Position numbers and translations under genes: made by a program. 64,000 nucleotides of DNA, from contig CALRBH010000001.1 of assembly GCA_943354165.1 (NCBI GenBank), positions 16,828 through 80,827 of the forward strand, written 5' to 3'. The stretch is from Candidatus Uhrbacteria bacterium RIFOXYB12_FULL_58_10 (lineage in GTDB: Bacteria; Patescibacteriota; Patescibacteriia; UBA9934; GWF2-40-263). The notes beneath the pieces were generated by a model. The model was not told the DNA's origin. It was given only the letters and a program-made list of their open reading frames with translations, and ran no database searches. Below are positions 36,872-58,878 of this stretch, in pieces. Position 1 is the first letter of the stretch. Each line of letters opens with the position of its first letter.

Positions 36872-36952
36872 AGAGTTAGTAGTAAGTAGTTAGTAGTAAG
36901 TAGTCGTAGTAAAAATTTACTAACTACTTACTACTAACTACTCTCTTACGTT
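36872..36952. repeat. TAGTAG-palindromic intergenic element, copy 1
   Basis: agttagtagtaagtagttagtag… hairpin with the complementary ctactaactact arm. Confidence 0.7.
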
Positions 36953-38337
36953 TTAACGTTTGCGACGGAGCGCGCGGTTTTTACCTTGATGCGAATAGGC
37001 GTTCCGGAAATGTCGATCTGTTCGCGGAGGCGGTTTTCGAGGAAGCGGAGATAGCTTGGGTGAAGCACGTCTTCCGTCTTTGCCTTAATCGTAAGGTGAT
37101 AGGAAGGAGGAGCCACGCCGGTCTGGGTGAAGCCGAGGGCGGTTGGATAGGCGGGGCCCTTGTGGCGGCTTGGGAGATGCTTCTTCACGGCGCTGCGGAG
37201 GAAGGTGTCGAGTTCCGCGTCCGTGGCCTGCGCGTACCGGTGCGACTGCACAAGGTCCACAAGTTCGAAAATCTTTTCGATGCGCTGGCTCGTGAGGGCA
37301 GAGACGAAGATCACGGGGGCCCAGGACATGTATGGAATGGAATTCACGAGCATGCGTTCAAACGCGTTTATGGTCTCTGGCGTCTTGTTTGGAATGAGAT
37401 CCCACTTGTTGACGACGATGATGACGCCCGCGCTACTTTCCTGAACGAGTCCGGCAAGCGTGCGTTCCTGGGAGGCGATCGGCGCGGTGGCATCGACGAC
37501 GAACAATACGACGTCTGCGCGGTGGACGACGTTCTGCGAACGTTCAACGCCGAGCGCTTCGAGTCCGCCTTCTTCGCGTACCTTGTACATCTTGCGGATG
37601 CCGGCGGTGTCGATGAGGACGTATTGGCGACCATCGATTTCAAGACGAGCATCGTTTGGTTCACGAGTCGTGTGAGCAATCGGAGAAGTGATGAATCGCT
37701 TCTCGCCGAGAATGGCGTTGAGAAGGGAAGACTTGCCGACGTTCGGACGTCCGATGACGGCGATGCGTGTCGCTTCAATACGTGAAAGTTCTGCGGGAGG
37801 CTTTCCGAGTTTCGCGAGCGTTTCCCAGACATGATCCAACATGTCGCCGACACCCATGCCGCGAAGGGCAGAGACCGCGTATGGAGTTGGGAGGCCGGCC
37901 AGGCGCCATTCCTTGGTGTTGATGCTGAGCGAGTCCGCGATGCGCTCGGCTTTGTTTGCGACAACGATGACAGGAACGCCCCCGTCACGAAGTCGTGCGG
38001 CGATCTCAAGATCCTGCGGGAGAGGTCCGGAGCGGACATCGGTCACAAAAATGATCAGGTCCGCCGTCTTCATGGCAATTTCAGACTGGGCGACAACGTT
38101 GTGTTCAATATCGCTTACGAGCTCGACGTCGAGTCCGCCCGTGTCTACGATCTTGATGGCCCGTCCACGCCAAAGACACTCACCCTCGGCGCGGTCGCGG
38201 GTGGTGCCGGCGACCGGGGAAACAAGCGCCCTGCGGCTTTCCGTAAGGCGGTTAAAAAGGGTGGATTTGCCGACGTTGGTTCGACCAATGAGGGCAATAA
38301 CCGGGACTTTATTGGAATTCATATCAACACAGCTCAA
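36946..38337 (-). CDS. der: ribosome-associated GTPase Der/EngA
   Basis: Two tandem GTPase domains (GRTNVGKS and GRPNVGKS) + KH-like C-terminus. Confidence 0.9.
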   Translation of the reverse strand: MSCVDMNSNKVPVIALIGRTNVGKSTLFNRLTESRRALVSPVAGTTRDRAEGECLWRGRAIKIVDTGGLDVELVSDIEHNVVAQSEIAMKTADLIIFVTDVRSGPLPQDLEIAARLRDGGVPVIVVANKAERIADSLSINTKEWRLAGLPTPYAVSALRGMGVGDMLDHVWETLAKLGKPPAELSRIEATRIAVIGRPNVGKSSLLNAILGEKRFITSPIAHTTREPNDARLEIDGRQYVLIDTAGIRKMYKVREEGGLEALGVERSQNVVHRADVVLFVVDATAPIASQERTLAGLVQESSAGVIIVVNKWDLIPNKTPETINAFERMLVNSIPYMSWAPVIFVSALTSQRIEKIFELVDLVQSHRYAQATDAELDTFLRSAVKKHLPSRHKGPAYPTALGFTQTGVAPPSYHLTIKAKTEDVLHPSYLRFLENRLREQIDISGTPIRIKVKTARSVANVKT

Positions 38338-38346
38338 TGTACGCTT

Positions 38347-39936
38347 TTATTTTCGTACCAGGTTCTCTGCGTTATCCCCCAAAATCACCAAAAAGTCAAT
38401 GTTCTCTCCGGTGGCCAGATGCTCAAAATCCTCGGGTGTCAGGGCCATGGATTTTGGGATGACGTCTCCGCTCGCGATCCATCCGGTCGCGGAAAGAGTG
38501 ACGTCCGCTTCAAGAAGTTCCTTGAGGGCCTTCAAATCCGCTGGGCGCTTTCCATCTGTGAGGTCGTAGATGACGGTGTGTTCAAATCCGCGGGACTTTG
38601 CGTTCCCGACCTTCACAACCTGGAATCCCTGCTTGTCGATGATTTGTGATGTGCGGAATCCGAGCCCGCTCACTGTGGTTCCGTTTTGAATTTCCACTTT
38701 TACGAACTTTGGCTTGATGGGAGCGGTCGCCGTAAGGGAAGGAGACGTTTCGAAAATGGCATCAGCCAGGCGCTGGAGCGATCCCCAGTCATCGTTCTTT
38801 GGCAACAGGACGTAGGCGCCGTTCATGGAGGTGGCGTAGAGCGGGGATTCCGGAGACGCATCGAGAACATGGTTCGCGATCTTGGACGCATCGAAATCTT
38901 TTAAGAGCGTTGCGAGACGGGCGAGTTCCCAGATCTCGAAGTTGGTGGCGATGTTGTCGCGCACCGTGTCGAGGATGCGGGCAATCTTTGCCGGGTTGAG
39001 AACGGTGGAGACGGAGAGTAATTTTTCGCGCATGGCGAGAATGATTTTCTGCTGGCGGCGCGAGCGTGCAAAATCCGACGCCTCGCCGTTGCTTCCGTGG
39101 CGCGAGCGAACGAACTTGAGAGCGGTGTCTCCGTCCATGTGCGTCCATCCCTCCTTAAACGAGAGTCGTTCAAAGCGGCAGGAGTAATCGACAGGTGCGG
39201 GAGGTATGACGGGAACCGTTTCTGCGGTGGTGGTTTCAGGAACAGCTTCAACAACCGGAGCGGGCGTTCCGCCGCAGTTGGCACTTTCCTTTCCGAGAAT
39301 CGGATACTCACTATCCACAAACGCTTTATCCACAAACACTTCCACACCGCCGATGTCATCGATCAGCTTGGCGAATCCACTGAAGTCTACGCGGACATAG
39401 TACTGAACAGACTCATCGAGGACGCTTCCGACCACTTCGCTTGCGAGGCCTGGGCCAGTTCCCGGTTCCGTATTTTCTCCGAACGCGTTTGCGTGGTTTA
39501 TTTTGCGCCAGCCGTAGCCTGGGATGGGGACGGACAGGTCACGGGGAATGGAAATCATCCCCACCTCTTTTGTGGAAGGTTTTACGCTTGCAAACAGCAT
39601 GGTATCAGAGAGCTGTGGACCATCGTGTCCGGCTCCGCCTACGCCCAACAGAAGAATGTTGATCCGATCTTCCGCTTCTCCGTTTAAACGTTTTTCTCCT
39701 GCCCCCACAAAAGACCGGATGAGCGCGAGCGGAGAGAAGGAAGGGAATGCCCCAGCGGCTTCCGTGTTGGAATGGATGTTCCAGGACAGGGCAATACCGA
39801 GGGCTGCCAGAAAAATTCCCACGGTAAGGAGGACTTTTTTTACACTCAATTTGCGCGGTTTTGGCGCGGGGAGCTCCTCTTCATTCATAGGCAAACAGAA
39901 TAGAAGCAGTATAGCGCGAATAACACATGTATTCAA
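38347..39936 (-). CDS. LytR-CpsA-Psr (LCP) family cell-envelope phosphotransferase with C-terminal extension
   Basis: N-terminal TM anchor; LCP core (INILLLGVGGAGHDGPQLSDT…ISIPRD); start may be at the downstream Met (MNEEEL). Confidence 0.75.
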   Translation of the reverse strand: MNTCVIRAILLLFCLPMNEEELPAPKPRKLSVKKVLLTVGIFLAALGIALSWNIHSNTEAAGAFPSFSPLALIRSFVGAGEKRLNGEAEDRINILLLGVGGAGHDGPQLSDTMLFASVKPSTKEVGMISIPRDLSVPIPGYGWRKINHANAFGENTEPGTGPGLASEVVGSVLDESVQYYVRVDFSGFAKLIDDIGGVEVFVDKAFVDSEYPILGKESANCGGTPAPVVEAVPETTTAETVPVIPPAPVDYSCRFERLSFKEGWTHMDGDTALKFVRSRHGSNGEASDFARSRRQQKIILAMREKLLSVSTVLNPAKIARILDTVRDNIATNFEIWELARLATLLKDFDASKIANHVLDASPESPLYATSMNGAYVLLPKNDDWGSLQRLADAIFETSPSLTATAPIKPKFVKVEIQNGTTVSGLGFRTSQIIDKQGFQVVKVGNAKSRGFEHTVIYDLTDGKRPADLKALKELLEADVTLSATGWIASGDVIPKSMALTPEDFEHLATGENIDFLVILGDNAENLVRK

Positions 39937-40129
39937 GAGGAGAATCTGCTATACTTTCATTCTCTGTCTCTCCATATCCATTCGTATTTCACCAACCGTA
40001 GAGCAAGGAATTTTATCAGCATTGCCGCAACCCACGAAGAAATCTTTTATTTCTGGTTTGGGAACGCCTGCGGGTACGGAGCCCCGTTTAAGGTCGTTCC
40101 AACGCGCTAGCTTCCCCATAATTCACCGC

Positions 40130-40298: not shown

Positions 40299-40913
40299 AT
40301 GTTAGAACATCCGCATCACGGTGGAGTGGATACCTTTTGGCATCGGAAGCTCGGGCCTGTTTTGGGTGCCGTTGCCGTCTTCCTCATTGAGGTCATCCAG
40401 ATCGTCATTATTTCCGCGGCGATCATTATTCCGGTCCGATATTTCCTGATCCAGCCGTTTTACGTGAAGGGCGCAAGCATGGAGCCGAATTTCTACGATA
40501 ATGAATACCTCATTATCGACGAACTCTCCTACCGTCTGCAGGATCCGGAACGCGGGGAAATCGTCGTGTTCCGCTATCCTCGTGATCCGAGTCAGTTTTT
40601 CATCAAACGTGTCATCGGTCTCCCTGGTGAAACTGTGGAAGTGAACGATGGGAAGGTCCTCATCTATACGACAGAGCATCCAAATGGAATCATTCTCGAG
40701 GAATCGTATTTAGAAGGAGCGCTGACAGAAGGAAAGAAAAAGACCACTCTTGCCGCTGGAGAGTATTTCCTCTTTGGGGACAATCGTGGAGAAAGCATGG
40801 ATTCCCGGTCCTTTGGTCCGGTAAAACGTTCCTTGATCATCGGCCGTGTCTGGCTTCGAGGATTGCCGCTTTCCCGCGTAAAACTGTTTGAAACGCCGAA
40901 GTATGGGCTGTAG
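40299..40913 (+). CDS. lepB: signal peptidase I
   Basis: Start at MLEHPHH; catalytic S (GASMEP) and K (RVIGLPGE) regions; GDNRGESMDSR box. Confidence 0.85.
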   Translation: MLEHPHHGGVDTFWHRKLGPVLGAVAVFLIEVIQIVIISAAIIIPVRYFLIQPFYVKGASMEPNFYDNEYLIIDELSYRLQDPERGEIVVFRYPRDPSQFFIKRVIGLPGETVEVNDGKVLIYTTEHPNGIILEESYLEGALTEGKKKTTLAAGEYFLFGDNRGESMDSRSFGPVKRSLIIGRVWLRGLPLSRVKLFETPKYGL

Positions 40914-41007
40914 TAAGTAAAAAGTAGTTAGTAGAAAGTAGTCAAAAACTATTTTCTACGCTGAAACTACTAACTACTAACTACTAACTACTATCTACTA
41001 ACTTACG
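40909..41007. repeat. TAGTAG-palindromic intergenic element, copy 2
   Basis: tagtaagtaaaaagtagttagtag… / …ctactaactactaactactaactactatctactaact. Confidence 0.7.
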
Positions 41008-41017
41008 ATCCCACGAT

Positions 41018-42469
41018 ATGTTCCCTAAGAAGCGTCCACAACCACCAAAGCCACCGGCTGAACCAAAGCCAGGGGATCCGCCTATAAAGAAGGGAAAGGC
41101 CCCTCCAGAACTTTTGCGTGGATTCCGCGATATTCTTGCGGAAGAGCAGCCTCGCTGGCAGTTGGTGCGCGATACCGTGCGTACCATGGCCGAGGCGTAC
41201 AGTTTTGACCGCATCGATCTTCCCATCCTTGAGCGTTCCGAGGTGTTTTTGCGCCCACTCGGGAAGAATACGGACGTCGTGGAAAAAGAAATGTATTCCT
41301 TTGAGGATCCGGGCGGAGACAAGGTATCCCTACGTCCTGAGGCTACGGCCCAGGTTGCCCGCGCCTACGTAAATCACGGCATGCTGAACCTGCCACAGCC
41401 GGTAAAGGTTTGGTATGAGGGGCCGATGTTCCGTCATGATCGTCCACAGGCCGGCCGATTCCGCCAGTTCAACCAGTTTGGATTTGAAGTGATCGGCGTT
41501 CCGGAAGCGATTGTGGATGCGCAGCTCATCGTGATTGCTACCCAGATCTTCAAGGATCTTGGGCTGGACGTGAGCGTACAGATCAATTCCATTGGGACAG
41601 TTGAATCCCGCCAGGCTTACCTTACGGAGCTCGTAAACTATTTCCGCCCACATCGCAGCAAGCTGTCTGAGGACGACAAGCGTCGCCTTCAGAAGAATCC
41701 ATTGCGCATCCTTGATAGCAAGGACCCGGTTGTTGTGGAGCTTCTTGTTGGAGCGCCACAGATCGTGGACTGGCTGGATGAAGATGCCAAAAATCACTTC
41801 ATGAAAGTGATCGAGTTCTTGGACGAGATGCACGTGCCGTACGTCCTGAACCCACACTTGGTGCGTGGGCTCGACTACTACACGCACACCGTGTTTGAAA
41901 TTTTCCTCGCGGGAGACGAGCCGGAGCGCGCGCAGTCCGCCCTCGGCGGCGGCGGACGTTATGACGGTCTCCTGGAGATGATTGGCGGTCGCCCAACGCC
42001 TGCTTGCGGATTCGCCGTGGGGATTGAACGCGTGGTCAAAGCGCTTGGAGAGAAGGGAATCCACCCACCTCCACGCCGCCGCCCACAGGTCTTCTTTGCC
42101 CAGCTCGGAGATGCGGCGCGGCGCGTCGGTCTCAAATTGTTTGAGGAGTTTCGCAAGGCGGACATTCCGGTGGCGGAAGCCTTCGGGAAAAACGCCCTCA
42201 AGGCGCAGCTCGAAGTTGCCAACAAGCTCGCGGTTCCGTTTACCCTTATTCTTGGGCAAAAGGAGGTGCTCGATGGCACCATTATCGTCCGGGACATGGA
42301 CTCCGGCGCCCAGGAAATCGTGGACGGCGCCAAGGTGGTTGCCCTCGTAAAGCGCAAGTTGGCGCATGCGAGCGACATACTGGTCACTCCTGCCTCTGCC
42401 GGAGCCCCCGCAGAAGCCGAGGTACCGGAAATCGATCCAGACCTTGACGCCCAGGACGCGTTTCGGTAA
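41018..42469 (+). CDS. hisS: histidine--tRNA ligase with Pro/Lys-rich N-terminal extension (start uncertain)
   Basis: Class II aaRS motifs; HisRS-specific regions; N-terminal ~30 aa PKP-rich before the conserved LRGFRDIL. Confidence 0.85.
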   Translation: MFPKKRPQPPKPPAEPKPGDPPIKKGKAPPELLRGFRDILAEEQPRWQLVRDTVRTMAEAYSFDRIDLPILERSEVFLRPLGKNTDVVEKEMYSFEDPGGDKVSLRPEATAQVARAYVNHGMLNLPQPVKVWYEGPMFRHDRPQAGRFRQFNQFGFEVIGVPEAIVDAQLIVIATQIFKDLGLDVSVQINSIGTVESRQAYLTELVNYFRPHRSKLSEDDKRRLQKNPLRILDSKDPVVVELLVGAPQIVDWLDEDAKNHFMKVIEFLDEMHVPYVLNPHLVRGLDYYTHTVFEIFLAGDEPERAQSALGGGGRYDGLLEMIGGRPTPACGFAVGIERVVKALGEKGIHPPPRRRPQVFFAQLGDAARRVGLKLFEEFRKADIPVAEAFGKNALKAQLEVANKLAVPFTLILGQKEVLDGTIIVRDMDSGAQEIVDGAKVVALVKRKLAHASDILVTPASAGAPAEAEVPEIDPDLDAQDAFR

Positions 42470-42767: not shown

Positions 42768-42792
42768 GCGAAGGTTTGGGAGGTTTGGGAAG

Positions 42793-42827
42793 TCCGGAAG
42801 GTTTGGTCCTTCCGGATTTTGCTTTTT
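42793..42827 (+). terminator. rho-independent terminator (tccggaagg…ccttccgga + TTTTGCTTTTT)
   Basis: 9-bp perfect stem followed by T-run, just downstream of rpsU. Confidence 0.7.
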
Positions 42828-42887
42828 CGCGTATACTTTTCCCATTAACCTCCCCAACCTTACGAACGTCCCAAACATCCCCAACCT

Positions 42888-43616: not shown

Positions 43617-43689
43617 AAGTAGATAGTAGTAAGTAGTTAGTAGTTAGTAGAACAAAAACTACTAACTACTTACTACTATCTACTAACTG
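43617..43689. repeat. TAGTAG-palindromic intergenic element, copy 3
   Basis: aagtagatagtagtaagtagttagtagttagtag-aacaaaa-actactaactacttactactatctactaact. Confidence 0.75.
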
Positions 43690-43750
43690 CGTTCAGAATA
43701 GTGTAGAATATATCCACAACGGAGGACGCTTTGTCCTTACGTCGCTTTCC

Positions 43751-45604
43751 ATGCTCATGCGACGCAACCCCACCACATTCCTGCGCGTTGTCGCGCGCAA
43801 CAGGCCAGCTAAGCTGGCCATGGCTACGGTTGTTTTCACGATCGGGCTTTTTGCGTTCCTCCTGCATCCGGACTCGGCGTTTGCCCAGACGGCGTTTGAG
43901 CAGTTCGGTTCCACCACGCGGTTGGGCCAGGAGAGTCTTCCTATTATCATCGCACGTATTATCCGGGTGGTGCTTGGCACGCTCGGGATCATCACGGTGG
44001 TACTTCTCCTGTACTCAGGCTTCCTCTGGATGACGAGCGCGGGGGATCCGAAGAAGATTGAACGCGCCAAGTCCATCATCAAGAACGCCGTCATCGGGCT
44101 CCTGATTATTTTTTCCTCCTTCGCGATTACCCAGTTCGTCTTGAACGCCTTGTTGCGTGCAACAGGGCTGGGAGGCATTTCCGGAAGAGATGCGGGCGCC
44201 TTCATCGAACCAAACTCCGGTTCCCTTGGGGCTGGGGTGGTGCAGGACCACTATCCGCCGCGCAACGCCGTGGATATTCCGCGCAACGCCAAGATTTTCG
44301 TGACGTTCAAGGAACCTGTGGATCCATCTACGGTGATTGCTGGGTTTGTTGAAGGCGCAACACCGCAGAGCAACGCTCTTGATCCGGACGCGGTCGCCAT
44401 TGTCGCGTCTGAACCTCCAAACAGCCTGCCGCTTCCTGGGAATTTGGTGGCCGTGTCTGTGAGTGAAGATCGCAAGACATTCGTGTTTGATCCTACCGAG
44501 CTGCTCGGTTCGGCGACACGGGATACGAACTACACCGTTTCGCTTACCGGCAACATCAAGCTCGCCAACGGACGCGATGCGTTTACGGGTGTATTTTCAA
44601 GCGGGTATTCCTGGACCTTCCAAGTCTCCACGGTCGTGGACCTCACGCCGCCGCAAGTGGTTTCCACAACGCCTACTTCCGGGGCCGAGCATTTCCCGAA
44701 TTCACTTGTCCAGATCACGTTTAACGAACCGATGGACCCGGTGGCCTCAACGGGAACGCAGAATCCTCCTACGAAAAATTTTACCAACATTTCCGTATTT
44801 AACGGCCCTGTTGCTACTGGAACGCGCGTGACAGGAACGTTCTCCATCGGCAATGGCTATCGCACGCTCGTATTCGTTCCAGACGTGCTATGCGCCAAGG
44901 ACCAGTGCGGCAGTGACGTGTTCTGCCTGCCAGTGAGCAGTCCGATCAATGTCGTCGCACGGGCCGCTACGCTTTCTACAGATCCTCCACAGGCCGTGCT
45001 GATCGGCGTTTCCTATGACGGCATCGTGGATGCGGCAGGGAACAGTCTCGACGGGGACGAAGACGGAATTGCCGAGGGTCCTGGTGCGGATTCCTATGGG
45101 GATCTGCAATTCACGACTGGAGACAAGGTGGACGCCCGCCAGCCGACGATCATCGCCGTGGATCCAAACTTGAATGAAGGGGAGATTGCAACGGATCGTC
45201 CCGTGACGGCCACATTCTCCATGCCGCTTATGGCCACGAGCGTGAACGGTTCGAGCGCCCAGATGTGGCCGGACCCTGACCATGAAATGTTCTTCGTGCC
45301 GCGCGTAGATGCCGTTACCGGAACTCCTCCGGCCAGATGTGAGGCGGATGGATGCTCGCGAGTTCAAATCCTCCATGGAGCCTTCCTGCCTCTTGATGTC
45401 GAAGGCGGGCCGTATTCCTACTATCCGATGCTCACCAAGGACATTAAGGGCAGCAACCAGTTCTGCATGTATCCGGCGAGCGGGCCTGCAGAAACGGGTT
45501 CTTGCGTCGCAACGCTTGCACGGCCGTTCTGCTGCAACGGCGTCGCGCAGAGAGACGCCTGTACAACCATCGGCACGAATCGTTCGCTTCCCCCTACGCC
45601 ATAA
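43751..45604 (+). CDS. secreted surface protein (617 aa) with N-terminal signal peptide + two-TM pilin-like hairpin, then bacterial Ig-like domains
   Basis: SP MATVVFTIGLFAFLLHPDSAFA; hairpin IIRVVLGTLGIITVVLLLYSGFLWMTSAGD-PKKIERAKSIIKN-AVIGLLIIFSSFAITQFVL; repeated V(T/F)F.EP(V/M)DP.T Ig-like starts. Confidence 0.8.
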   Translation: MLMRRNPTTFLRVVARNRPAKLAMATVVFTIGLFAFLLHPDSAFAQTAFEQFGSTTRLGQESLPIIIARIIRVVLGTLGIITVVLLLYSGFLWMTSAGDPKKIERAKSIIKNAVIGLLIIFSSFAITQFVLNALLRATGLGGISGRDAGAFIEPNSGSLGAGVVQDHYPPRNAVDIPRNAKIFVTFKEPVDPSTVIAGFVEGATPQSNALDPDAVAIVASEPPNSLPLPGNLVAVSVSEDRKTFVFDPTELLGSATRDTNYTVSLTGNIKLANGRDAFTGVFSSGYSWTFQVSTVVDLTPPQVVSTTPTSGAEHFPNSLVQITFNEPMDPVASTGTQNPPTKNFTNISVFNGPVATGTRVTGTFSIGNGYRTLVFVPDVLCAKDQCGSDVFCLPVSSPINVVARAATLSTDPPQAVLIGVSYDGIVDAAGNSLDGDEDGIAEGPGADSYGDLQFTTGDKVDARQPTIIAVDPNLNEGEIATDRPVTATFSMPLMATSVNGSSAQMWPDPDHEMFFVPRVDAVTGTPPARCEADGCSRVQILHGAFLPLDVEGGPYSYYPMLTKDIKGSNQFCMYPASGPAETGSCVATLARPFCCNGVAQRDACTTIGTNRSLPPTP

Positions 45605-45610
45605 AACGTT

Positions 45611-51600: not shown

Positions 51601-52768
51601 CGGCATTCCGTTCGTGGAGGACGGCGTGCCTGTCGGCGGCGGAAATCCGGTCAATCCGACCAACTTCAGCTTCTTCTTCTGCCGAGACGCCGGCGCTCCC
51701 GGGGAGGCTGGAGACTTGCCTGACATGACCGATGTCCGCGTGCTTACGTCTCCAACATCGAACATCCTTAAGGAAATGCTGTTCACGCTCCCATCTACCG
51801 GTGACGCGGTCGGGGTGAAAGTGATTGCGAACCCTGATTATCTCCCACCGGAAATCTGGTACCAGAAACAATTGTTCACCGGCAATCCAAGCGCGGCGAC
51901 TGTGGACGGATACGAGGCCGTGCGCGACGGCGACACGCTTTACACGCTTGCTGCGAACCAGATCGGCGACATCTTCCCGAACATTTACGTGGTTTCGATG
52001 AGCAACAACCCGAACCCGGAGTCGCGCAAAGTGTTCGACCAGGTGCTCGCCAACTTCCGGTTCAATGCGAATACGGATGCCGTCACGAACGTGAACGTGT
52101 GCGTGAAGGGGAATGGGTTCGTAAAGGTGAACGCCGCCGGTGTCGAGGATCCCGCGGGTCAATTAATCGGCTGTACCTCGGATCTCGATTGTTCCAAGGT
52201 GGCCGGTGCCACCTGTGATGCGGACAAGGCAAAATTGCGCCGCGATACGCGCCGTCTCTCGGATGTGATTCGCGTGAGGGAAGCGCTTGTGGCCTATGGC
52301 CGCACGCACGGTCACTGCGAGCTTACGAAGTCACAATTCTGTACGACCAGTTTCCAGTGTCCTGTCGCCGCCTCCGGAGCATTCGAACGCTGTCTTCCAG
52401 AGGTCCCGGCGCTCGCCGAAGGTTCGTTCATCCGCGCGATGTCCACCAGCGCCTGGCCGTCCTGGACGGATGCGCTCGCGAAGGATCTCGGAAAAGCATT
52501 GCCGATCGATCCGCTTAACAAGTTCGCCGGATGTACCGGTGCCGCCGCGGACAAGGAAACCTGTTTCGATTCCGCCGCAGGCACGTTCCAGTGCAGCGTC
52601 GGCAGCCACGTGTACGGCTACCAGAGCGTCGCCGGGGAAACCTATACGTTCACCTCCTCGCTCGAGCACAACGGCGCCAAGTGGTTCTTCCCGATTGACG
52701 CCAACCCGAGCGACAATGCGCTGCTTCGGGTAGAATATCCACCAGGCACCCCAGGTGTCTCCCCATAA
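45611..52768 (+). CDS. giant secreted surface protein (2385 aa): signal peptide + pilin-like hairpin, Ig-like and IPT/TIG repeats, tandem Cys-rich (Myxococcus-type) repeats
   Basis: N-terminus near-identical in architecture to the 43751 protein (LYGGFLYMTAAGD…KAKNTLKNAVIGLVIVLSSF); IPT/TIG-like repeats (…SP..GP.G..(I/L)T(I/L).G..(F/L)G…); repeats CGDG…GEECDDGN…NDGCSSVCL. Confidence 0.85.
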   Translation: MRRFLTSTLLISLLLALAGIGMVQVGAVHAQDLATFGEQAGFTTTGDLTSIIARLIRTAISFLGIIVVIFILYGGFLYMTAAGDETRITKAKNTLKNAVIGLVIVLSSFSIVTFILSRLSDATGTGSIIGSDGGGGFTPPGGGTRAKIFALEGSNAAACEGIIQNIRPQLVFTQQVDPATLVGGIVVTNGAVAVPGAFTTSGRTVTFTPTEVCAAAPTERCLPANSTIQITLNPAVLKSASKRPLTCTADPGCSVNYTTGSAVDTRAPSVSMKAPESGSSFRLGDIVSLQAAAIDDVAPAIVSFTAAGDNIFDSSDRTPGTLPGEFLFATDASQWDTAGFEAGRSVAVAASVNDCAGHTANASSVSVFLRADSCFNGQLDTSLGETDVDCGGTGAFSCGACEGQSCTTNADCSATGACENGRCVAVVRIDSISLNDGAPGNFVSINGVGFGTTPGPVAFLGAAAGDATNAQVVSCDTVVQWAPTQIIVQVPAGAKDGPIRITNAAGQIDSSNDDRGATFQPFDVNGVERPGLCAPSVVLPGLGAPGDTVRISASKLGSDRGSSMLFFSDVQASAYLSWGDTLVSAIIPNVNARAHSVQAFVGDNRCTITTTLACERDADCGPAGGVCAFNRQGSNIVKLNVVSSSTTSAPLLSTVSPATGPIGQTITLAGNGFGTTRGTVRLVSAADDSKVALASIDFPAACGDGLWRDDLVTVIVPAAYQGAGGAVQPGVHKMRVVRTPDGTGSNEIDFTITAGVPGPSICKIDPVSGPIGTPLTISGAKLGTQKGTATFFGVAAPVAAPAESSWSADAITNFPVPVGAQTGPMSVQTAGAAGVSSNTLPFQVSDCRQANNVCPVGSECCGNGTCATSCAPSIEEAYYMWRTSTGPIPKVPRVIVQCNDELLSQSPWEGFSTPSHVCLEADVVATFSVGADIAAPIMDITTLTAANIQVEKCAASGSDPCGDGKRTQGPVGVIVPTDSSFKFTHAAPFEPSTRYRVTLKGGSAAGVIRSAAPAFVPMESDYSWEFVTAAAGTACTMGSVSVSPRASLILNVNGKTSFLSAPRDAQDSCIQLPCKVSQGWVWTPVGNPIATLVSPVASIPPNPDGDACRAEATALKETPIGAPLKIRATATDAPGDPFGEADLTITFLEPKVISFIPACDTACINALLEAEFNVAMNPATISTGTVRVFSCINALCLDGLTPVSILAPTYNGFSGKNLLSITTQTDLAPNTYHRVILSGNIESANSIKLSRSGGNFKKRGEDGPTNEDYSWIFRTKSDDSATTINEALCRIVRVEVKPESATVQVIGERAEFVASPFSAPDECSAEGQKIKGTGIVWQPWTSADVADNVPDPVRAAAMLNSPGISGGVQTIATLPAACTSSCVLAGNTLTGLSACGDSTTDLLAGEECDDGNQTNNDGCSSVCLHEGSQATTCGDRFSNPGEECDDGGRVNGDGCSSVCLREGSIVANQCGNGFLDGDVIIGGEECDTLLSPTGCSSECLFTGNSVSNATGRCGNGTIEASAGEQCDGGAKCSSRCLLVGNLNNDCGDGNIDAGEACDDANRLNEDGCSSICLREGSSAFYPTASFCGDTRVGIGEDPACESPSGTAVAAGPYSAMQSLPAAEQEIETDTKIAVTRLTASVGGQSDTATFNMECSCQSDNACGNTNVNGCGLSGCCSVRPTIVSTVPTNGQSSVCRNTEVKVHFDKPMDQASFNDHAYLELVGAGANCPSTHTRVASANGGWFAGFVQSVRDAITWLVGSEANAAPVPGSCIVPITFRTAPNAGGSDVFLQLSQALIPNATYRIVVERDGNASDAIRDGVLSTAGVGLVKGPADTQINFTSSFTTGGTVCGLDAVEVTDLGRTDASDLIKKSPGFFSKQNETHTLHATDLSKQNGQLEPIQPIVGSYSWTHAWVSTPIDTTPENVISLALPVPAPAGPVVQEMIARSVGKNGEETVTVNAAITTDVFNTPTTTGRIVKGTTTLIAFVCENPWPKFDDGIPFVEDGVPVGGGNPVNPTNFSFFFCRDAGAPGEAGDLPDMTDVRVLTSPTSNILKEMLFTLPSTGDAVGVKVIANPDYLPPEIWYQKQLFTGNPSAATVDGYEAVRDGDTLYTLAANQIGDIFPNIYVVSMSNNPNPESRKVFDQVLANFRFNANTDAVTNVNVCVKGNGFVKVNAAGVEDPAGQLIGCTSDLDCSKVAGATCDADKAKLRRDTRRLSDVIRVREALVAYGRTHGHCELTKSQFCTTSFQCPVAASGAFERCLPEVPALAEGSFIRAMSTSAWPSWTDALAKDLGKALPIDPLNKFAGCTGAAADKETCFDSAAGTFQCSVGSHVYGYQSVAGETYTFTSSLEHNGAKWFFPIDANPSDNALLRVEYPPGTPGVSP

Positions 52769-52770
52769 GT

Positions 52771-55700
52771 ATGATTGCTCGCGCGCGATTCCAACCGTTC
52801 CGCGTTCTTGTCCTCGTCCTGTTCATCGTGTTCGGGACCGGGCTTATCGATCTTCAACCGGCACTTGCGGTCGCGCCGCGCGTTACAGGCTTCTTTGTTC
52901 CATTCCCTGCGGCGGACGGTACATTCACGGTTGGTACTACTGTGGTTATTGGCCTCACGTTCGACCAAGACGTGACTCTGACAGGCACTCCACAGCTGAT
53001 TTTGAATACCGGTTCTCCGGCGACGACGACCATAAATCTCACCAGGTTCAATTCACCCCGAACGTTCCTGTTTAACTACGCAATAACAGCAGGAAATTCT
53101 TCCCCCGACCTGAGTTATGTTAATTCGAGCTCGCTCGTATGTGTTTCCCCTTGTGTAATAAGGAACGCTGGGAACGAGCTCGCCAATCTCCAGCTTCCGG
53201 CGCCTGGCACCGCTGGCTCCCTCAGTGCTGTCAGAAACATCGTGATCGACGCGGTTGCTCCAAGTCAGCCTAGTATTGATTTTGACGCTGCGGACGATAC
53301 TGGTTCATCCACCACGGACAATATCACCAACAAAACATCCGGTTTGACGTTCTCCGGCCGCGCTGAAGCAAATTCCACGGTAAGACTTCTGGAAGGGAGT
53401 ACGGTCCTGGGCACAACCACCGCTCTCGCGAATAACACCTGGAGCATCGACCCCGTCTCACTAGCGGCGGGTGTTCACCCTGTGCGGGTAACTTCGACGG
53501 ATGCCGTTGGGAACGTGTCGGTGGCTTCAACTATTATTTCGTTAACGGTAGACACGACTCGCCCCACAGTTACGATCAACAAAACGGCCGCCCAGGCCGA
53601 TCCGACTGGTACACAGCCGATTGGATTTACGACGACGTTTACCGAAACCGTGACTGGATTCATCGGTACTGACGTGACTACATCAGCGAGTACGGCTCCT
53701 GGAACGAAGACGATAAATATTACCGGAGGTCAAGCGACCTATACTGCTTCTGTGTCCGGCGCGACCGGCACGGGAACCATCGTCGCGTCCATCGCTGCAG
53801 GCGTGGCAAGCGATACGGCAGGGAACCTGAACCTCGCCTCCACGAGCACGGACAATTCCGTGCAGTTCAACGCACCACCTCCACCACCTCCCCCAGCTCC
53901 TGCCCCTCCCACCGTCCTCTCCATCACACGGATCGACCCGTCACCCACCAGCGCCTCGACGGTTTCCTGGTCCGTGAGATTCAGCGAGCCCGTCCTGAAT
54001 GTAGATGCGACGGATTTTCACCTCTCCCCCATAAGCCTTACGGGATCAGGTAATATTCGGCTTTTGACGCAAGGATCCGGTCTTGCGGTATATACGGTTG
54101 CGGCGGATACGGGAACGGTCGCGGCCCCTGGCCCAGGAACGCTCAGGCTCGACCTTTTAGATAACGATTCCATTACGAGCGCAGCTAATTCGATATCACT
54201 CGGGGGTCCGGGTGCCGGCAACGCAAGCCTAAAGGGTGAGGAATACACGATCTCCGCCGCCGCTCCCGTACCTCCTGATCTTCTCAACACTATTATCTCA
54301 AGCGCGGTCGCCAATACCGAGCCGCCAACCAATGGGGTCTTCATTAACACTTCGGGGACTCCCACAAGCACGACGTTACGCAACGTTCGGGTTACGTTCG
54401 ATAGCAATAAGGCTGGAAGCGACACGTTTGCCTGTAAGATCGATGCGGAACAGTTCGCGCCATGCACTTCTCAATTCACTCGATCCGGTTTGAGTGTGGG
54501 CTCTCATACGTTTTCGGTTCAAGCCTCCCTTGGCGCAGAAACGGATGCGTCACCGGCGAGTTTTTCTTGGACGATCACGGCGGCGGCAACGGACTCGACT
54601 CCGGCCGTGCTTACATTTAACACTCCAGGCTCCGGCGCTGTCGTGAATGGGACTGTTTCTGTTTCCATTTCGGCAACAGACGCCTCGATGCCGGTCAGTG
54701 TGGCGTTGGCCGTGCCGTGTGGAAGCGTCTCAGGCGCGAACCCGCAATCCGTCGGCGCCGCGGGCGCAGCGACCTTTAGTTGGAATACATTGGGGGGTAC
54801 GGCATGCGTAAACGGCAACAGAATCCTTTCTGCCATTGGACGTGACTCTGCTTCGCCCGCGAACACCTCCGCGGCAGTTACGCGTACGGTGAACGTAAAC
54901 AATGTGGCACAGGTCGCACCTCCTCCGATCCCAAACACGACGGATACTGACGGCGACGGCGTTCTCGATGTGAACGATGGGGCGGCGAATGATCCCTGTG
55001 TTCCCAATGCAAGTTCTCCTGCATGTCCACCACCTCCAGCTGGAGGGACTATTACGCTTTTCTCAAATCCAGGAAGCGGGGCTGGTACCGCGTCAGTATG
55101 TGTACAGACCGGCGCCGGACCGTCTTCCGTCAACATCCCTTCAACCGGCTTCGTTTCCGCTCCGCTCTTCTGCCCGGCGACCGGCTCCAATCCGTTCGGA
55201 AGTTCTGCGACGTGCGGAGATGGCGTGAAGGGTCCGTTCGAGGTTTGCGAGATCGGGGAAGTGAAAACGGATACCGCGAGCTGTAACGCTCCCGTGTGTA
55301 CAAGGGGAGGCATCCGGAATTTCTTCTGCATAAAGGATCTGAACAACGGTGCGTGTCGATTCCAGACGGTGTCAGATTCCAACCTCGCTTCCTGCGTTCC
55401 ATTTAGCTGCGGAAACGGGGCGGTGGATCCTGGGGAAGCGTGCGATGACGGAATTTTAAACGGCACGCAAGGACATTGCGGCCCTGATTGCAGTTTCGCC
55501 AGTGCCTTCTTCTGCGGCGACGGATTCCTCGGTGGAGGCGAACAGTGTGACTGCGGAAACTCTGACGCAAACCGCACGAAACCGAATTCGTTTGCTCTCT
55601 TGAGGAGTTGTTCCAAGGTAAATGGCCAGTACACGACAGGGACGGGGATCAGCTGCGACTTTGACTGTACGGCCCCTGGTCCTTCCTGCGGGGACGCAAT

Positions 55701-58032
55701 TGTGAATGGTCCGGAAGCTTGTGATCCGGCCGTACCTGGCGGAGGGTTTGAAGAATACGGTGGAGCGTTCTGTCTCGGTGGAGCCAATAACGGCCAGAAG
55801 TGTTCCATTGCAGGGAACTGTCCAGGGGGAAGTTGTGGAGGTAATGCAGCGACCAACGCGTGCGTTCCCTCTAAAATTTGTACCGCTGGAGGGACAAACG
55901 AAATAGGGAATTCTTGTTCAACGAACACACAATGCGACGGTATCGTTTCGATATCGGTTTGTGATGAATCAAGCTGCGACGCCCAGCAAGGCATTATATC
56001 CGGCATCTGTTCTGTTCAGGCGTTCTCGACGACCAGGTCCCGTACCTGCAATGCAAGAGGATCGACGGATCAATGCACATTCATTAAAGCAAATACGTTC
56101 AATGGGTTCGGCGCCTGCAAGGGCGGATCACAACGCTGCGGAAACGGAGCGAAAGAAGGGACGGAGCAGTGTGACGACGGAAATACCAAAGAGGAAGATG
56201 CCTGTACGAACAGCTGTCTCACGAACGTCTGCGGAGATGGAAAAGTGAACCGCGATGCTAACTCAACCGAGTCCTGCGATGACGGGGCGAATAATGGTCG
56301 ACAGCCTGGGTCTGGGGAAATTCCTTACAATGGAACGGCGGTTTTCTGTACCGCGGACTGTAAGTTCCGGACCATCTCCGGCCCGTTCTGCGGGGACAAC
56401 GTGAAAAATCTACCGCAGGAATCGTGTGACGGGGCGCAGGTGAATAAGACCTATTGTTATAATGCAACGACACGAGAAGGGGGTAAGGTGGCTTGTACCC
56501 CACCTAATTCCGCTGCATTTATTGCCGCAGCTACGGCATCTGCACAAGCCGCAGTCACTGCTGCTGCAGCTTCGGCGAATCCAACCCAAGCAAATATTGC
56601 GGCAGCCGCTGCGGCTCAATCCGCCCTTACTGCAGCCTCTGTTGGAGTCTTCATGACCGGTTCGTCTCCAACTACATGTGGTTCACCAGCTACTTGTACG
56701 ACGGTTGGTGTCTGTGACGGAGGTGTTTCTTCAGGGCTGGTTTGTCGAATGGGAACAGCTGCAGATTGTACGGGTGGGACCTGCAAGCCTCCGCAATGTA
56801 CGGCAGATTGTAACGGCAGCTGTCCATTTGATTTCGATCAAATAAGTTTGAAAGTACAATCGGAGATTCCTGGTTCGCTTCGAAAAGATGACATTTCCCT
56901 CTTTAGTTTCCAGAACGCAAATGGGGACGTACCGGATAATGCCACGTTGTTTATCCCAGCATGTGCGGTAGGACGTTCTCTTCAGGTTGATATTGCGCGC
57001 CCCAATGTTGTTCTTCCGACCGTGGATGTCATGATCATGATCGATACCTCCGGAAGCATGGTGAGTAGTGTGGGTGGAGGGCTACGCCGAATTGACGTGG
57101 TCGTCGATGCCGTGAAGCCGATGATTGAGACGCTCATTTCTACCTATCAACAGCAAGGTGGGACCATGCGTATTGCTGTGGGGAGTTTCGAGCTGAGCAG
57201 TGAACACCGAGCTGCACATGGAGCCAATGCGAGTATTGACCAGGAGTTTACTTCTTCTATTCAGCCTTTGCAGGACATGATTGAAACCTATCGCGCGATC
57301 GATAACAACGGCGGAACGCCAACCGAAGCAGGCTTGCAGGTGAGTTTGGACGTATTCAAACCCGAGACGTCTACAGCTCAACGAAAGATTCTTGTGTTCA
57401 TGTCTGATGGAGCGCCGAGCGATGCCGCTGCAATCGCTGGATGTACTACGAACTTATCTGATCTCGCAAAAGTGGGAACGGTCGAACTGGCTCGTGTGAC
57501 AAACTACAATACTGGATGTGGAGGCTTCATCGTTCTATCAGATGTAGTAGGAATTAAAACCGCCGCTGCGCAAAATATCGAAATCTACACCGCAACCGTT
57601 GCGCCCGTTTCGGATGCTCCGTTGATAAATTTTATGCGGCACATTTCTGACGACGGTTGTCCTGCTTCGCATTATGCAAATCCGACCGCGAACTCTTCGC
57701 CAGCGTTTAGTGATGTCACCGGTTGTACGGTGAACCCGCAGAACAACATCCAGTATGCGTATAGCGGGATTACCGCCGTGGCTATCGAGGAGATGTTCCT
57801 GTCCATCAGTAACTCCATTCTCGGCGTCACGCCGTCGTTCGTCCAGTCCGGGACGGGTGGGGCTGTGGTCAGTTCATTCCCCGTGTTGATCGGTGACGGA
57901 ACGGTTCTGCCGATACCAGATTTCTTCGTGTGTGGTCCGACGGAACAGAGCATCCCGCTGTCCGTGTCATTCAGCGGAACCGGGAGCCTCGACTTTGAAG
58001 ACTTCTCCCTTGAATATTGTCCGATTCAGTAA
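52771..58032 (+). CDS. giant secreted surface protein (1753 aa): signal peptide, Ig-like repeats, Cys-rich repeats, C-terminal von Willebrand factor A domain
   Basis: SP; polyproline PPPPPPPAPAPP linker; CGNGAVDPGEACDDG and GTEQCDDGNTKEEDACTNSCL repeats; MIDAS motif DTSGSM at ~57043 with downstream vWA core. Confidence 0.85.
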   Translation: MIARARFQPFRVLVLVLFIVFGTGLIDLQPALAVAPRVTGFFVPFPAADGTFTVGTTVVIGLTFDQDVTLTGTPQLILNTGSPATTTINLTRFNSPRTFLFNYAITAGNSSPDLSYVNSSSLVCVSPCVIRNAGNELANLQLPAPGTAGSLSAVRNIVIDAVAPSQPSIDFDAADDTGSSTTDNITNKTSGLTFSGRAEANSTVRLLEGSTVLGTTTALANNTWSIDPVSLAAGVHPVRVTSTDAVGNVSVASTIISLTVDTTRPTVTINKTAAQADPTGTQPIGFTTTFTETVTGFIGTDVTTSASTAPGTKTINITGGQATYTASVSGATGTGTIVASIAAGVASDTAGNLNLASTSTDNSVQFNAPPPPPPPAPAPPTVLSITRIDPSPTSASTVSWSVRFSEPVLNVDATDFHLSPISLTGSGNIRLLTQGSGLAVYTVAADTGTVAAPGPGTLRLDLLDNDSITSAANSISLGGPGAGNASLKGEEYTISAAAPVPPDLLNTIISSAVANTEPPTNGVFINTSGTPTSTTLRNVRVTFDSNKAGSDTFACKIDAEQFAPCTSQFTRSGLSVGSHTFSVQASLGAETDASPASFSWTITAAATDSTPAVLTFNTPGSGAVVNGTVSVSISATDASMPVSVALAVPCGSVSGANPQSVGAAGAATFSWNTLGGTACVNGNRILSAIGRDSASPANTSAAVTRTVNVNNVAQVAPPPIPNTTDTDGDGVLDVNDGAANDPCVPNASSPACPPPPAGGTITLFSNPGSGAGTASVCVQTGAGPSSVNIPSTGFVSAPLFCPATGSNPFGSSATCGDGVKGPFEVCEIGEVKTDTASCNAPVCTRGGIRNFFCIKDLNNGACRFQTVSDSNLASCVPFSCGNGAVDPGEACDDGILNGTQGHCGPDCSFASAFFCGDGFLGGGEQCDCGNSDANRTKPNSFALLRSCSKVNGQYTTGTGISCDFDCTAPGPSCGDAIVNGPEACDPAVPGGGFEEYGGAFCLGGANNGQKCSIAGNCPGGSCGGNAATNACVPSKICTAGGTNEIGNSCSTNTQCDGIVSISVCDESSCDAQQGIISGICSVQAFSTTRSRTCNARGSTDQCTFIKANTFNGFGACKGGSQRCGNGAKEGTEQCDDGNTKEEDACTNSCLTNVCGDGKVNRDANSTESCDDGANNGRQPGSGEIPYNGTAVFCTADCKFRTISGPFCGDNVKNLPQESCDGAQVNKTYCYNATTREGGKVACTPPNSAAFIAAATASAQAAVTAAAASANPTQANIAAAAAAQSALTAASVGVFMTGSSPTTCGSPATCTTVGVCDGGVSSGLVCRMGTAADCTGGTCKPPQCTADCNGSCPFDFDQISLKVQSEIPGSLRKDDISLFSFQNANGDVPDNATLFIPACAVGRSLQVDIARPNVVLPTVDVMIMIDTSGSMVSSVGGGLRRIDVVVDAVKPMIETLISTYQQQGGTMRIAVGSFELSSEHRAAHGANASIDQEFTSSIQPLQDMIETYRAIDNNGGTPTEAGLQVSLDVFKPETSTAQRKILVFMSDGAPSDAAAIAGCTTNLSDLAKVGTVELARVTNYNTGCGGFIVLSDVVGIKTAAAQNIEIYTATVAPVSDAPLINFMRHISDDGCPASHYANPTANSSPAFSDVTGCTVNPQNNIQYAYSGITAVAIEEMFLSISNSILGVTPSFVQSGTGGAVVSSFPVLIGDGTVLPIPDFFVCGPTEQSIPLSVSFSGTGSLDFEDFSLEYCPIQ

Positions 58033-58035
58033 GCT

Positions 58036-58785
58036 ATGACTACTCGCCTGCGTATCGGTTTGATCATCGGCGCGCTCCTTCTCATCGGTGGGATCGGGCT
58101 TGTGTTCTGGCTTAGGAGTCGCGGGCTTGAGTCCGCGCGAAACTCGCTTGAACAGGCCCAACAGCAGGTTGAGGCGGTGAAGGAGACATGTAAGGAAGGC
58201 GATTCGGCTTGTCTGAACACGGTGGTTACGGATGCCGCAGAAGAATTTAAGAGTTCCGCTGCCTGTAAGGAGCTGGCAGGGGAAGCAGCCGATAATTGCG
58301 TATGGACCGTCGCGCGCTCATCGAACGATGAAGCGGTATGTGCGGAGATCGTGAACAGTGAATGGAGCGTCAGGTGTCATGACGGCATCCTGCTTTCAAA
58401 GGCCATGAGTTCAAAGGATCCGTCCGTGTGTTCTCGGATCACTTCCGTTCCGCAGAAGGACCAGTGTTTGGCGGCGATTGATCCCATTACCGCGCAGAAC
58501 TGTTCGTCTCGCGGGAAGAGCGTCGAGGAATGTGCTGAACTTCAGAGCTATGAAACGGCGATCGCGTCTGGAGACTATTCTGCGTGCGCGCAATTCAGCG
58601 GAGAACGGAAGGATTCGTGCATTGACGTTACTGCCGAGTCCGATCCTGACGCCGACGGTCTGTCCGGCGCTGATGAAGCTCGATACGGCACTTCAAACCA
58701 GAAACCCGACACAGATGGCGATGGGTTTACTGATGGTGATGAAGTCGCAGGTGGCTTTAATCCAAACGGCCCGGGCAAATTGTGA
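58036..58785 (+). CDS. single-pass membrane protein, Cys-rich ectodomain, C-terminal Asp-rich thrombospondin-type-3-like Ca-binding repeats
   Basis: TM IGLIIGALLLIGGIGLVFWL; DPDADGLSGADE…DTDGDGFTDGDE repeats. Confidence 0.75.
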   Translation: MTTRLRIGLIIGALLLIGGIGLVFWLRSRGLESARNSLEQAQQQVEAVKETCKEGDSACLNTVVTDAAEEFKSSAACKELAGEAADNCVWTVARSSNDEAVCAEIVNSEWSVRCHDGILLSKAMSSKDPSVCSRITSVPQKDQCLAAIDPITAQNCSSRGKSVEECAELQSYETAIASGDYSACAQFSGERKDSCIDVTAESDPDADGLSGADEARYGTSNQKPDTDGDGFTDGDEVAGGFNPNGPGKL

Positions 58786-58800
58786 TATGATTAGCGAAAG

Positions 58801-58878
58801 AAGTTAGTAGTAAGTAGTTAGTAGTAAGTAGTCGACAGGACTTTTTCTACTATCTACTAACTACTATCTACTAACTAC
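58801..58878. repeat. TAGTAG-palindromic intergenic element, copy 4
   Basis: aagttagtagtaagtagttagtagtaagtagtc…ctactatctactaactactatctactaactacg. Confidence 0.7.

Follow-up and report, generated by a model that had tools for sequence, protein, structure and literature searches.

The stretch of DNA considered here, 64,000 nucleotides from Candidatus Uhrbacteria bacterium RIFOXYB12_FULL_58_10 (assembly GCA_943354165.1, contig CALRBH010000001.1, positions 16,828 to 80,827 of the forward strand) and referred to below as the window, carries four intergenic hairpins, E1 to E4, each of 70-100 nt and each built as an array of heptamers, (GTAGTWA)n, followed by a loop and by the reverse-complementary array, (TWACTAC)n. 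According to Pfam, E1 separates der from pth on the minus strand, E2 separates lepB from hisS, and E3 stands between a yqeY-like gene and a gene with type IV secretion system (T4SS)-pilin and Big_5 matches, after which come genes for proteins of 2385 and 1753 amino acids; E4 precedes the gene for a 226-amino-acid product. The elements and their arms are placed as follows.

36872-36945, minus strand: E1, the whole of the der>pth gap; arms 36874-36904 and 36918-36942
40909-41012, plus strand: E2, in the lepB>hisS gap; arms 40910-40942 and about 40965-41003
43617-43689, plus strand: E3, at the end of the hisS-S21-yqeY block; arms 43618-43645 and 43657-43684
58794-58878, plus strand: E4, between two genes for TSP3-repeat proteins; arms 58801-58832 and 58846-58878

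Allowing one mismatch, a search for the 12-mer AGTAGTTAGTAG gave 26 matches, every one of them within E1-E4, where shuffled sequences lead one to expect 0.05; this and the other copy counts cover the 64-kb window. Tandem Repeats Finder (TRF) assigned a period of 7 with 3.6-5.7 copies per arm, all four elements fall within intergenic gaps, and their GC content is 29-32% in a window of 55.9%. Folded as RNA, either strand of each element yields between -31 and -42 kcal/mol, with z scores of -4.1 to -8.4. The true end of E1 is at 36945, so that the element fits between the der stop (36946-36948) and the pth ATG (36869-36871); its arms show 100% complementarity over 20-22 nt, and its sense strand has a minimum free energy (MFE) of -38.4 kcal/mol. 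The first TAG of E2 is the lepB stop itself (40911-40913), its arms are 79-84% complementary, and the hisS ATG follows at 41018. E3 begins 1 nt past the yqeY TAA and pairs perfectly over 28 bp (-41.9 kcal/mol, z = -8.4), and E4, with arms that are 87% complementary, is flanked by an upstream stop at 58783-58785 and a downstream ATG at 58883. The units of the 3' arms are TAACTAC, TTACTAC and TATCTAC, and these arms end 2 nt (E1), 14 nt (E2) and 4 nt (E4) from the next ATG. The order of the units differs between E1 and E3 and is mirrored perfectly in each, whereas the mirroring in E2 and E4 is imperfect; tandem units leave the register of an alignment of the four copies ambiguous.

An earlier note on this DNA, made from its letters alone, had described four palindromes able to form long hairpins, with stop codons in every frame, between co-directional genes. 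Arm pairing and RNA folds bear out the hairpins at the positions it gave, stops are indeed found in six of six frames of each copy, and all four junctions (der>pth, lepB>hisS, yqeY>pilin-like and TSP3>TSP3) join co-directional genes. Its further statement that two copies bracket the start of the giant-protein locus needs correction: what E3 and E4 enclose is the whole 15-kb block of four genes (43751-58785) and not its start. An origin of the copies as assembly artefacts from low-complexity reads is excluded by two observations: an independent short-read Logan assembly of this organism (SRR7054680, here L168), with an identical hisS, shows no difference from the window across the 3' arm of E2, and comparable hairpin architecture is present in isolate and complete genomes. 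E1-E4 are therefore real. The L168 contig ends within the 3' arm of E2 (L168 1-44), and such heptamer hairpins fragment assemblies.

The same junctions were compared in six syntenic Uhrbacteria loci, recovered through HisRS homologues of 76-79% identity, a protein whose homologues also mark the host of the window as Uhrbacteria-like (Patescibacteria); metagenome relatives recovered through Der, at 54% identity or less, are fit for statistics of repeat period and too distant for the comparison of junctions. Gene order is conserved, with parB, relA, topA, dprA, pth, der and lytR followed by lepB, hisS, S21, yqeY, the pilin gene and the giant-protein gene. The der>pth junction is empty in L166 and L167, where it reads 'TAA T ATG' with a single intervening nucleotide, and in L171, where the genes overlap by 4 nt. 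It is filled by 74 nt in the window (E1), by an 81-nt hairpin of AAGGCCTCAGG units in L164, by 87 nt of AGAGTCG units in L165 and by 80 nt of AGGC-type and then GCCTAAM units in L170. At lepB>hisS, the 104 nt of the window (E2) correspond to 'TGA T ATG', again 1 nt, in L165 and effectively also in L166, and to 7-8 nt in L164 and L169. The pilin>giant junction measures 1-7 nt except in L169, where a 151-nt hairpin (6659-6809) of CAATGAC/GGTCATT heptamers folds with -68 kcal/mol. The other junction hairpins of the relatives have the following positions.

L164: 6016-6096 and 7474-7542
L165: 972-1058
L170: 5269-5348

The L164 locus also holds a palindrome of about 150 nt and of AAACTTGAA type downstream of topA (676-826).

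The yqeY>pilin junction has a different content. All relatives have a terminator there, with a GC stem and a T-tract, and then a conserved TGTAGAAT-like box; in the window E3 stands in the place of the terminator, the same box follows, and no other terminator is found at that junction.

43702-43709, plus strand: the TGTAGAAT -10-like box, upstream of the pilin/giant-protein operon

The box is kept in position as TGTAGAAT, TGTACAAT or TGTATAAT in L164, L165, L166, L169, L170 and L171, and its conservation in position puts E3 at an operon boundary. TGTANAAT, tried as a general promoter marker for operon mapping, shows no enrichment in the window (3 occurrences against 2.5 expected).

A tree from Der and LytR groups the loci as ((window, L164), (L171, (L166, L165, L170))), in agreement with a distance matrix from concatenated Der, LytR and HisRS. 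Within the clade of L166, L165 and L170, at about 81% identity, one empty and two differently filled states of der>pth occur together, from which it follows that occupancy of the junction is recurrent and its turnover fast, each genome having its own dispersed family, as far as the compared sequences tell. The tree fits either repeated insertion at der>pth or one ancient insertion followed by replacement, and either may have taken place. On the same comparison, E1 and E2 are lineage-specific fillings of stop/start junctions that were ancestrally 1 nt long. E4 probably fills a once-tight junction in like manner, by extension from the other two, the relatives' loci ending short of that junction, and E3 occupies, as its position shows, the slot of a terminator where an operon ends. 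The form 'TGA T ATG' that the relatives have at their junctions persists to the left of E4 (58783-58807), and opens a mini-open reading frame of six codons (MISERS), which the earliest TAGs in the 5' arm bring to a stop.

Filled gaps in the window are not confined to this one unit. A fifth hairpin, E5, overlooked in the earlier note, has an identical build from a different heptamer, and other gaps contain repeats as well.

26790-26920, plus strand: E5, unit AAACGAC/GTCGTTT, the whole of the parA>parB gap
42768-42887, plus strand: S21>yqeY gap, consisting of the stop, (AGGTTTGGG)n, a terminator at 42789-42820, CCCAAAC-like C-rich repeats and the ATG
29357-29407, minus strand: topA>relA gap, a (CCCAAACYT)n direct repeat on the sense strand that forms a native G-poor leader before the start
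36289-36322, minus strand: pth>dprA gap, (CCCTTACAR)n on the sense strand, running up to CCCC ATG

E5 is spanned over its whole length by an open reading frame (ORF) of 42 codons at 26786-26914 (MINDKKQTTNDKEKLKTPNGGKIYGFVVSCLSLSFRIYRLSF), which begins in an ATGA overlap with the parA stop, ends 6 nt short of the parB ATG and may be a relay ORF for translational coupling. In the S21>yqeY gap the G-rich AGGTTTGGG comes after the stop, with its C-rich complement ahead of the next ATG, so that this gap follows the logic of E1-E4 with another unit. Co-directional genes in the window are mostly 1-12 nt apart; five of the seven mid-sized co-directional gaps are the hairpins E1-E5, and some of the other co-directional gaps hold C-rich direct repeats directly before the ATG. 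Tandem repeats of 8-9 nt were seen in short gaps at 42768-42887, 29357-29407, 36289-36351 and 31707-31738, and the array at 36290-36351 extends into the 3' end of pth.

The filled junctions share a geometry. In sense-strand MFE folds of eight of them, seven have the upstream stop within the 5' base of the stem or directly at it and the downstream start 0-9 nt from the 3' base, the exception being E3; in the fold of E1, the der UAA pairs opposite the pth AUG at the base of the stem. They also share a polarity: in 11 of 11 hairpins of the Uhrbacteria clade, which represent about seven unrelated families of units, purines dominate the 5' arm (58-78%) and pyrimidines the 3' arm. The der>pth hairpins of the relatives obey it too, the purine-rich arm following the stop and the pyrimidine-rich arm preceding 'T ATG'. 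Because a palindrome reads alike on both strands, this purine-first rule is independent of the direction of transcription. A rule of composition common to unrelated sequences points, judging from the sequences compared, to a constraint on a single strand, most simply that of the mRNA.

The polarity fits the G-poor, pyrimidine-rich leaders of the clade. The window host lacks Shine-Dalgarno (SD) sequences, GGAGG being found in the upstream 20 nt of none of its 38 ATG-start genes. The leaders of these 38 genes are depleted in G and rich in C, with nine occurrences of CCCC against 1.5 expected and six of CCTCC against 0.8 expected, and T occupies position -1 in 28 of them. C-rich tracts before starts were also seen in the relatives L122 and L066; examples from the window, all upstream of ATG-start genes, are these.

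1561-1571: C-rich leader
4614-4623: C-rich leader
5060-5069: C-rich leader

CCUCC corresponds in sense to the customary anti-SD sequence, which draws attention to the 3' tail of the 16S rRNA in this clade.

Four copies that share the unit within 22 kb make the elements of the window a dispersed family. GTAGTC stands at the edge of the loop in E1, E2 and E4, that is, in three of the four arrays of the window as against 8 of 131 arrays elsewhere; in E1 it is inverted relative to the genes, and the asymmetry of the loops of E1, E2 and E4 is the same on the plus strand regardless of gene direction. In L164, likewise, the family of the der>pth hairpin recurs at lytR>der, in a copy about 88% identical to the first (alignment score 79, against -9 +/- 7 for shuffles), and that family is absent from the other genomes compared. 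The arms of E4 have separate 14-nt periods, (AGTAGTTAGTAGTA)2.5 on the left and (CTACTATCTACTAA)2.3 on the right, and this difference implies that arms grow by slippage independently. Among the natures proposed in the earlier note, a mobile repeat resembling miniature inverted-repeat transposable elements comes closest, given the empty 1-nt sites in relatives, the shared GTAGTC and the dispersed copies; the flanking target-site duplications that it had suggested looking for are not visible at the four copies. Relatives at about 78% protein identity are too diverged to supply the exact sequence before insertion against which the absence of a flanking direct repeat at E1-E4 could be read. No transposase, REP-associated tyrosine transposase (RAYT, a Y1 transposase; REP, repetitive extragenic palindromic) or RNase III was found among the proteins of the 64-kb window. 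A XerC/D-type tyrosine recombinase is encoded at 20827-21918 on the minus strand.

Two other functions that had been proposed for the elements fared less well. A terminator scan reported none of E1-E4, which have neither a GC-rich stem of about 5-15 bp nor a T-tract; the sequences directly after the stems are CTCTATG, TACGATCC, CTGCGTTC and ACGCCTAT, with no run of T. No sigma-70-like promoters were found within E1-E4, and there is no promoter-like site after E1 or E2. Canonical terminators with a GC stem and a T-tract are used elsewhere in the window.

42789-42820: one terminator
27779-27820: one terminator
7039-7627: two terminators
62574-62696: one terminator

E1, E2 and E4 can thus be rejected as canonical intrinsic terminators. 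Since the junctions of E1 and E2 are 1 nt long in relatives, these two elements would lie inside operons, and the suggestion of bidirectional terminators finds no support for E1, E2 and E4; what is left of it is the position of E3 in a terminator slot. E1-E4 resemble Rho-independent terminators in placing a stable hairpin after a stop, and E3 also in its slot, but they have no GC stem or T-tract, and E1, E2 and E4 are probably intra-operonic. The notion of a translational insulator defined by stops in all frames is contradicted by the open 42-codon frame that crosses E5 and by the stop-poor hairpins of the relatives, those of L164 having two or three sense frames without stops, and six-frame stops are accordingly ruled out as the definition of the class; richness in stops is a by-product of the GTAGTWA unit and not a selected property. 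A search of Rfam 15 gave no match at gathering score for E1-E4, and at E<=1 only sub-threshold matches to generic hairpin models of microRNA precursors.

The unit itself is widespread. The array AGTAGTWAGTAGTWAGTAG occurs at no fewer than 120 loci in species-representative genomes, mainly in heterocystous cyanobacteria, Bacteroidota and several lineages of Patescibacteria. Strict hairpins account for only 5 of 120 loci, with two looser cases, and nearly all of the remainder are tandem arrays on one strand. In every hairpin among the 120 loci the TAG-rich arm comes first, and over all loci, across phyla, the TAG-rich orientation follows gene stops 50 times, against 22 for the opposite orientation. 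Paceibacterota (L066) and Falkowbacteria (L068) also have a hairpin reaching from stop to ATG. Among viral contigs there were 67 matches to AGTAGTW arrays, against 34 and 58 for permuted units of the same composition and at least 120 for TAACTGA. We had entertained AGTAGTW as a special, horizontally spread unit and rejected it, the permuted controls being about as frequent; that it is found so widely therefore comes from heptamer arrays being abundant in general. Seven is the commonest period of tandem repeats in related Patescibacteria loci (42 arrays), where hairpins of other heptamers also occur.

We know of no established function or placement rule for intergenic heptamer repeats, nor, to our knowledge, have junction placement and arm polarity so far been described for the short tandemly repeated repetitive (STRR) sequences or long simple sequence repeats. 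Heptameric repeats are over-represented in bacterial intergenic DNA (Mrazek 2007; Mazel 1990), as those works are cited in PMC4692102 and PMC4679880, and have received little study. As characterized in these citing papers, the heptameric simple sequence repeats and STRR sequences resemble our elements in being tandem 7-nt units in three or more head-to-tail copies, intergenic, prone to slippage and spread over several phyla, AGTAGTW arrays included, but E1-E4 differ from what is set out there in being palindromes of array, loop and reverse array that fill stop-to-start junctions in Patescibacteria. Similar in placement are the direct repeats of TAACTGA found in marine Beggiatoaceae, cyanobacteria and Bacteroidetes (MacGregor 2015, PMC4679880), which mostly end one to a few nucleotides before starts that lack an SD sequence, sometimes overlap the end of the upstream gene and are arranged as direct sets, with one inverted set among 170 (PMC4679880). 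They share with E1-E4 a stop-rich heptamer, the position before the start and the absence of an SD sequence, and the 3' arm (TAACTAC)n agrees with TAACTGA at 5 of 7 positions; the unit of E1-E4 is not TAACTGA, however, every copy is paired with its complement, and the host belongs to the candidate phyla radiation (CPR). The GGGAATC and GGGGAYT heptamers of Xanthomonas and Nostoc are G-rich, with proposed G-quadruplexes (Rehm et al. 2015, PMC4692102). They too are intergenic, vary between close relatives at the same gene pairs and in part form inverted stem-loop pairs (PMC4692102). E1-E4, by contrast, are A/T-rich and form plain duplex hairpins.

REP sequences and their mosaic arrangements (BIME), enterobacterial repetitive intergenic consensus (ERIC) sequences and the Correia elements or Neisseria miniature insertion sequences (NEMIS) are short, dispersed intergenic palindromes that are co-transcribed and fold in mRNA; their consensus is defined and not repetitive, and target-site duplications or a partner transposase often accompany them. 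E1-E4 share with REP, ERIC and Correia elements the dispersed intergenic palindrome, the genome-specific family and the empty sites in relatives, but their arms are tandem heptamers that vary in the order and number of units, no target-site duplication was found at the four copies, and the window holds no transposase. GTAG is the head motif of REP sequences, each of which is a single imperfect palindrome of 20-40 nt; E1-E4 have GTAG in every 7-nt unit and tandem arms.

We therefore propose that E1-E4 are a genome-specific family of small palindromic repeats that occupy the junctions between genes while preserving translational coupling. The first part of this proposal, that of a genome-specific palindromic family filling the joints, we hold to be likely. 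The coupling mechanism, which leans on predicted folds, is tentative, and taken as a whole the proposal seems to us evenly balanced between right and wrong. In outline, heptamer arrays would have been spread by insertion or dispersal, with subsequent local slippage, into the non-coding joints of a compact genome, would be transcribed within polycistronic mRNAs and would there fold as hairpins of 20-28 bp. The base of the stem would include the upstream stop or adjoin it and would itself lie 2-6 nt from the downstream AUG, so that stop and start would remain adjacent despite an insert of 70-130 nt. A terminating ribosome, whose footprint and helicase extend several nucleotides past the stop, would then melt the lower stem, and the opening of the stem would free both the AUG and the G-free, pyrimidine-rich 3' arm, which is akin to the native C-rich leaders. 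The coupling that a 1-nt junction provides might thereby survive through RNA unfolding, re-initiation or both, and the relay ORF of E5 could be a second route by which coupling is retained. Coupling of both kinds, and its dependence on distance, has been reviewed (PMC12548453), with rpmI-rplT and the genes VII-IX of phage f1 among the examples. As in those cases, the structure would reach from the 3' end of one gene into the start region of the next and be opened by the upstream ribosome, and the geometry of E1, E2, E4 and E5 fits; our elements differ in being inserted repeats of 70-130 nt in an SD-less host, and the comparison, one of way of working, is drawn from sequence.

Several points weigh against this proposal. 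Co-transcription and folding in vivo are both inferred, and structure just after a stop was negatively correlated with coupling in a synthetic Escherichia coli screen, as that screen is cited in PMC12548453. The juxtaposition of stop and start is partly trivial, for anything that fills a gap touches both of its ends. Coupling cannot explain E3, which stands at the end of an operon with 62 nt between it and the next ATG, and the imperfect stems of E2 and E4 argue that perfect pairing is not under strong selection. The purine-first rule is broken by hairpins of distant Patescibacteria (L122, L134 and L135). Finally, neither a target-site duplication at the four copies nor a transposase or RAYT in the window was found that would account for their spread.

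Alternatively, the elements could be selfish or neutral repeats without a role, arising by slippage and by inverted duplication or dispersal, persisting wherever they are not lethal and leaving the downstream genes to be translated independently. The prevalence of period 7 in related loci and of heptamers in bacterial intergenic DNA generally, the complete replacement of unit sequences between relatives, the failure of AGTAGTW to be commoner than its permuted controls (67 against 34 and 58) and the imperfect stems of E2 and E4 would all be expected on this account. A hairpin of -32 to -42 kcal/mol situated 2-6 nt from the AUG of the essential genes pth, hisS and parB should, however, block independent initiation; a purine-first polarity maintained over some seven unrelated families requires selection on a single strand or a biased origin; and the same 1-nt junction has been occupied repeatedly. 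On balance we find neutrality unlikely, if a serious contender. A more specific role would be that of elements for RNA processing or stability, in which an A-U-rich duplex is cut by RNase III or shields 3' ends and cleavage could unmask the downstream start. Palindromic repeats that are co-transcribed and processed by RNase III have precedents in the Correia/NEMIS, ERIC and REP-like sequences. E1 and E3 offer perfect duplexes of 20-28 bp, and E2 and E4 symmetric internal loops; the elements appear to be intra-operonic, cleavage would leave a 3' arm that resembles the native leaders in having no G, and an endoribonuclease gene, ybeY, is present in the window, but no RNase III gene was seen there. 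We consider such processing rather improbable as the explanation in its own right, and it is compatible with our proposal, not exclusive of it.

Termination without a T-tract, made bidirectional by the palindromic sequence, comes into question mainly for E3, which stands where six relatives have a canonical terminator and upstream of the conserved -10-like box; the excess of TAG-orientation arrays after stops (50 against 22 across phyla) would also agree with it. That the stems have about 30% GC and pass no scan, in a genome that uses classical terminators elsewhere, and that the gaps of E1 and E2 are 1 nt in relatives, with essential genes downstream and no promoter-like site after the two elements, make this account highly improbable. 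Scarcely credible, in our estimation, is an action at the level of DNA, whether as arrays bound by a dimeric protein, as cruciforms or as REP-like substrates of RAYT or IS200-type enzymes: the GTAG in every unit, the dispersal of the copies and the loop asymmetry of E1, E2 and E4, constant on the plus strand irrespective of gene direction, could be cited in its favor, but unrelated units share position and polarity in the relatives, which one sequence-specific protein cannot explain, the window contains a XerC/D-type recombinase and no Y1 transposase or RAYT, and REP sequences are not tandem arrays of heptamers.

The proposal of preserved coupling also has a bolder variant, in which the helix stays closed and the hairpin acts as a bridge, over which a ribosome that stops at the 5' foot would be passed to the AUG at the 3' foot. 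It would be the bacterial analogue of the ribosomal shunting known from plant pararetroviruses, and we regard both the hand-over and the parallel as improbable speculation. Were it true, a 1-nt junction could take up any palindrome whose 5' arm is rich in purines and whose 3' arm is poor in G while its genes stayed coupled, and the repeated occupancy by unrelated families, the single polarity and the relay ORF between parA and parB would be explained together.

Further features of the window were recorded in passing. An initiator-type tRNA-Met(CAT) at 25147-25913 is split in its anticodon loop by a group I intron of 690 nt (exons 25147-25181 and 25872-25913; the spliced form is called as tRNA-Met by ARAGORN); the intron has an Rfam Intron_gpI match at 25581-25849 and contains an ORF of about 158 amino acids at 25209-25685. 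A diversity-generating retroelement occupies 32543-35207, with a reverse transcriptase ORF (RVT_1) at 34152-35207, a template repeat at 33682-33804 and a variable repeat (33207-33329) in the 3'-terminal part of the ORF at 32543-33343; the template has A at 20 of the 22 mismatches between the repeats. A gene for a ParE-family toxin (31794-32063) and an upstream partner of 119 amino acids (together 31794-32425) are likely to be a toxin-antitoxin pair. A 199-nt 'gap' in the ribosomal protein operon, at 2444-2642, appears to encode a short zinc-ribbon protein of the S14 type, which lies below the minimum ORF length of 80 amino acids that was applied.

The AGTAGTW unit is thus an ordinary one, and what is unexpected is the repeated filling of 1-nt junctions by unrelated hairpins of the same polarity in a clade without SD sequences. 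Obligate palindromic pairing, junction placement, the polarity rule and the CPR host set these elements apart from known repeats. The finding bears on gene calling, on operon prediction and on assembly, as the break of L168 in E2 illustrates. It amounts to a natural experiment, in which 1-nt junctions beside essential genes have in some Uhrbacteria been filled by unrelated hairpins of 70-150 nt and a single polarity. If coupling is preserved across them, they would provide a handle on RNA unfolding as opposed to ribosome hand-over and on the way in which translation starts in the CPR; if they are inert, they would show that even very compact genomes can accept structured insertions at the joints between their genes and exchange them rapidly.

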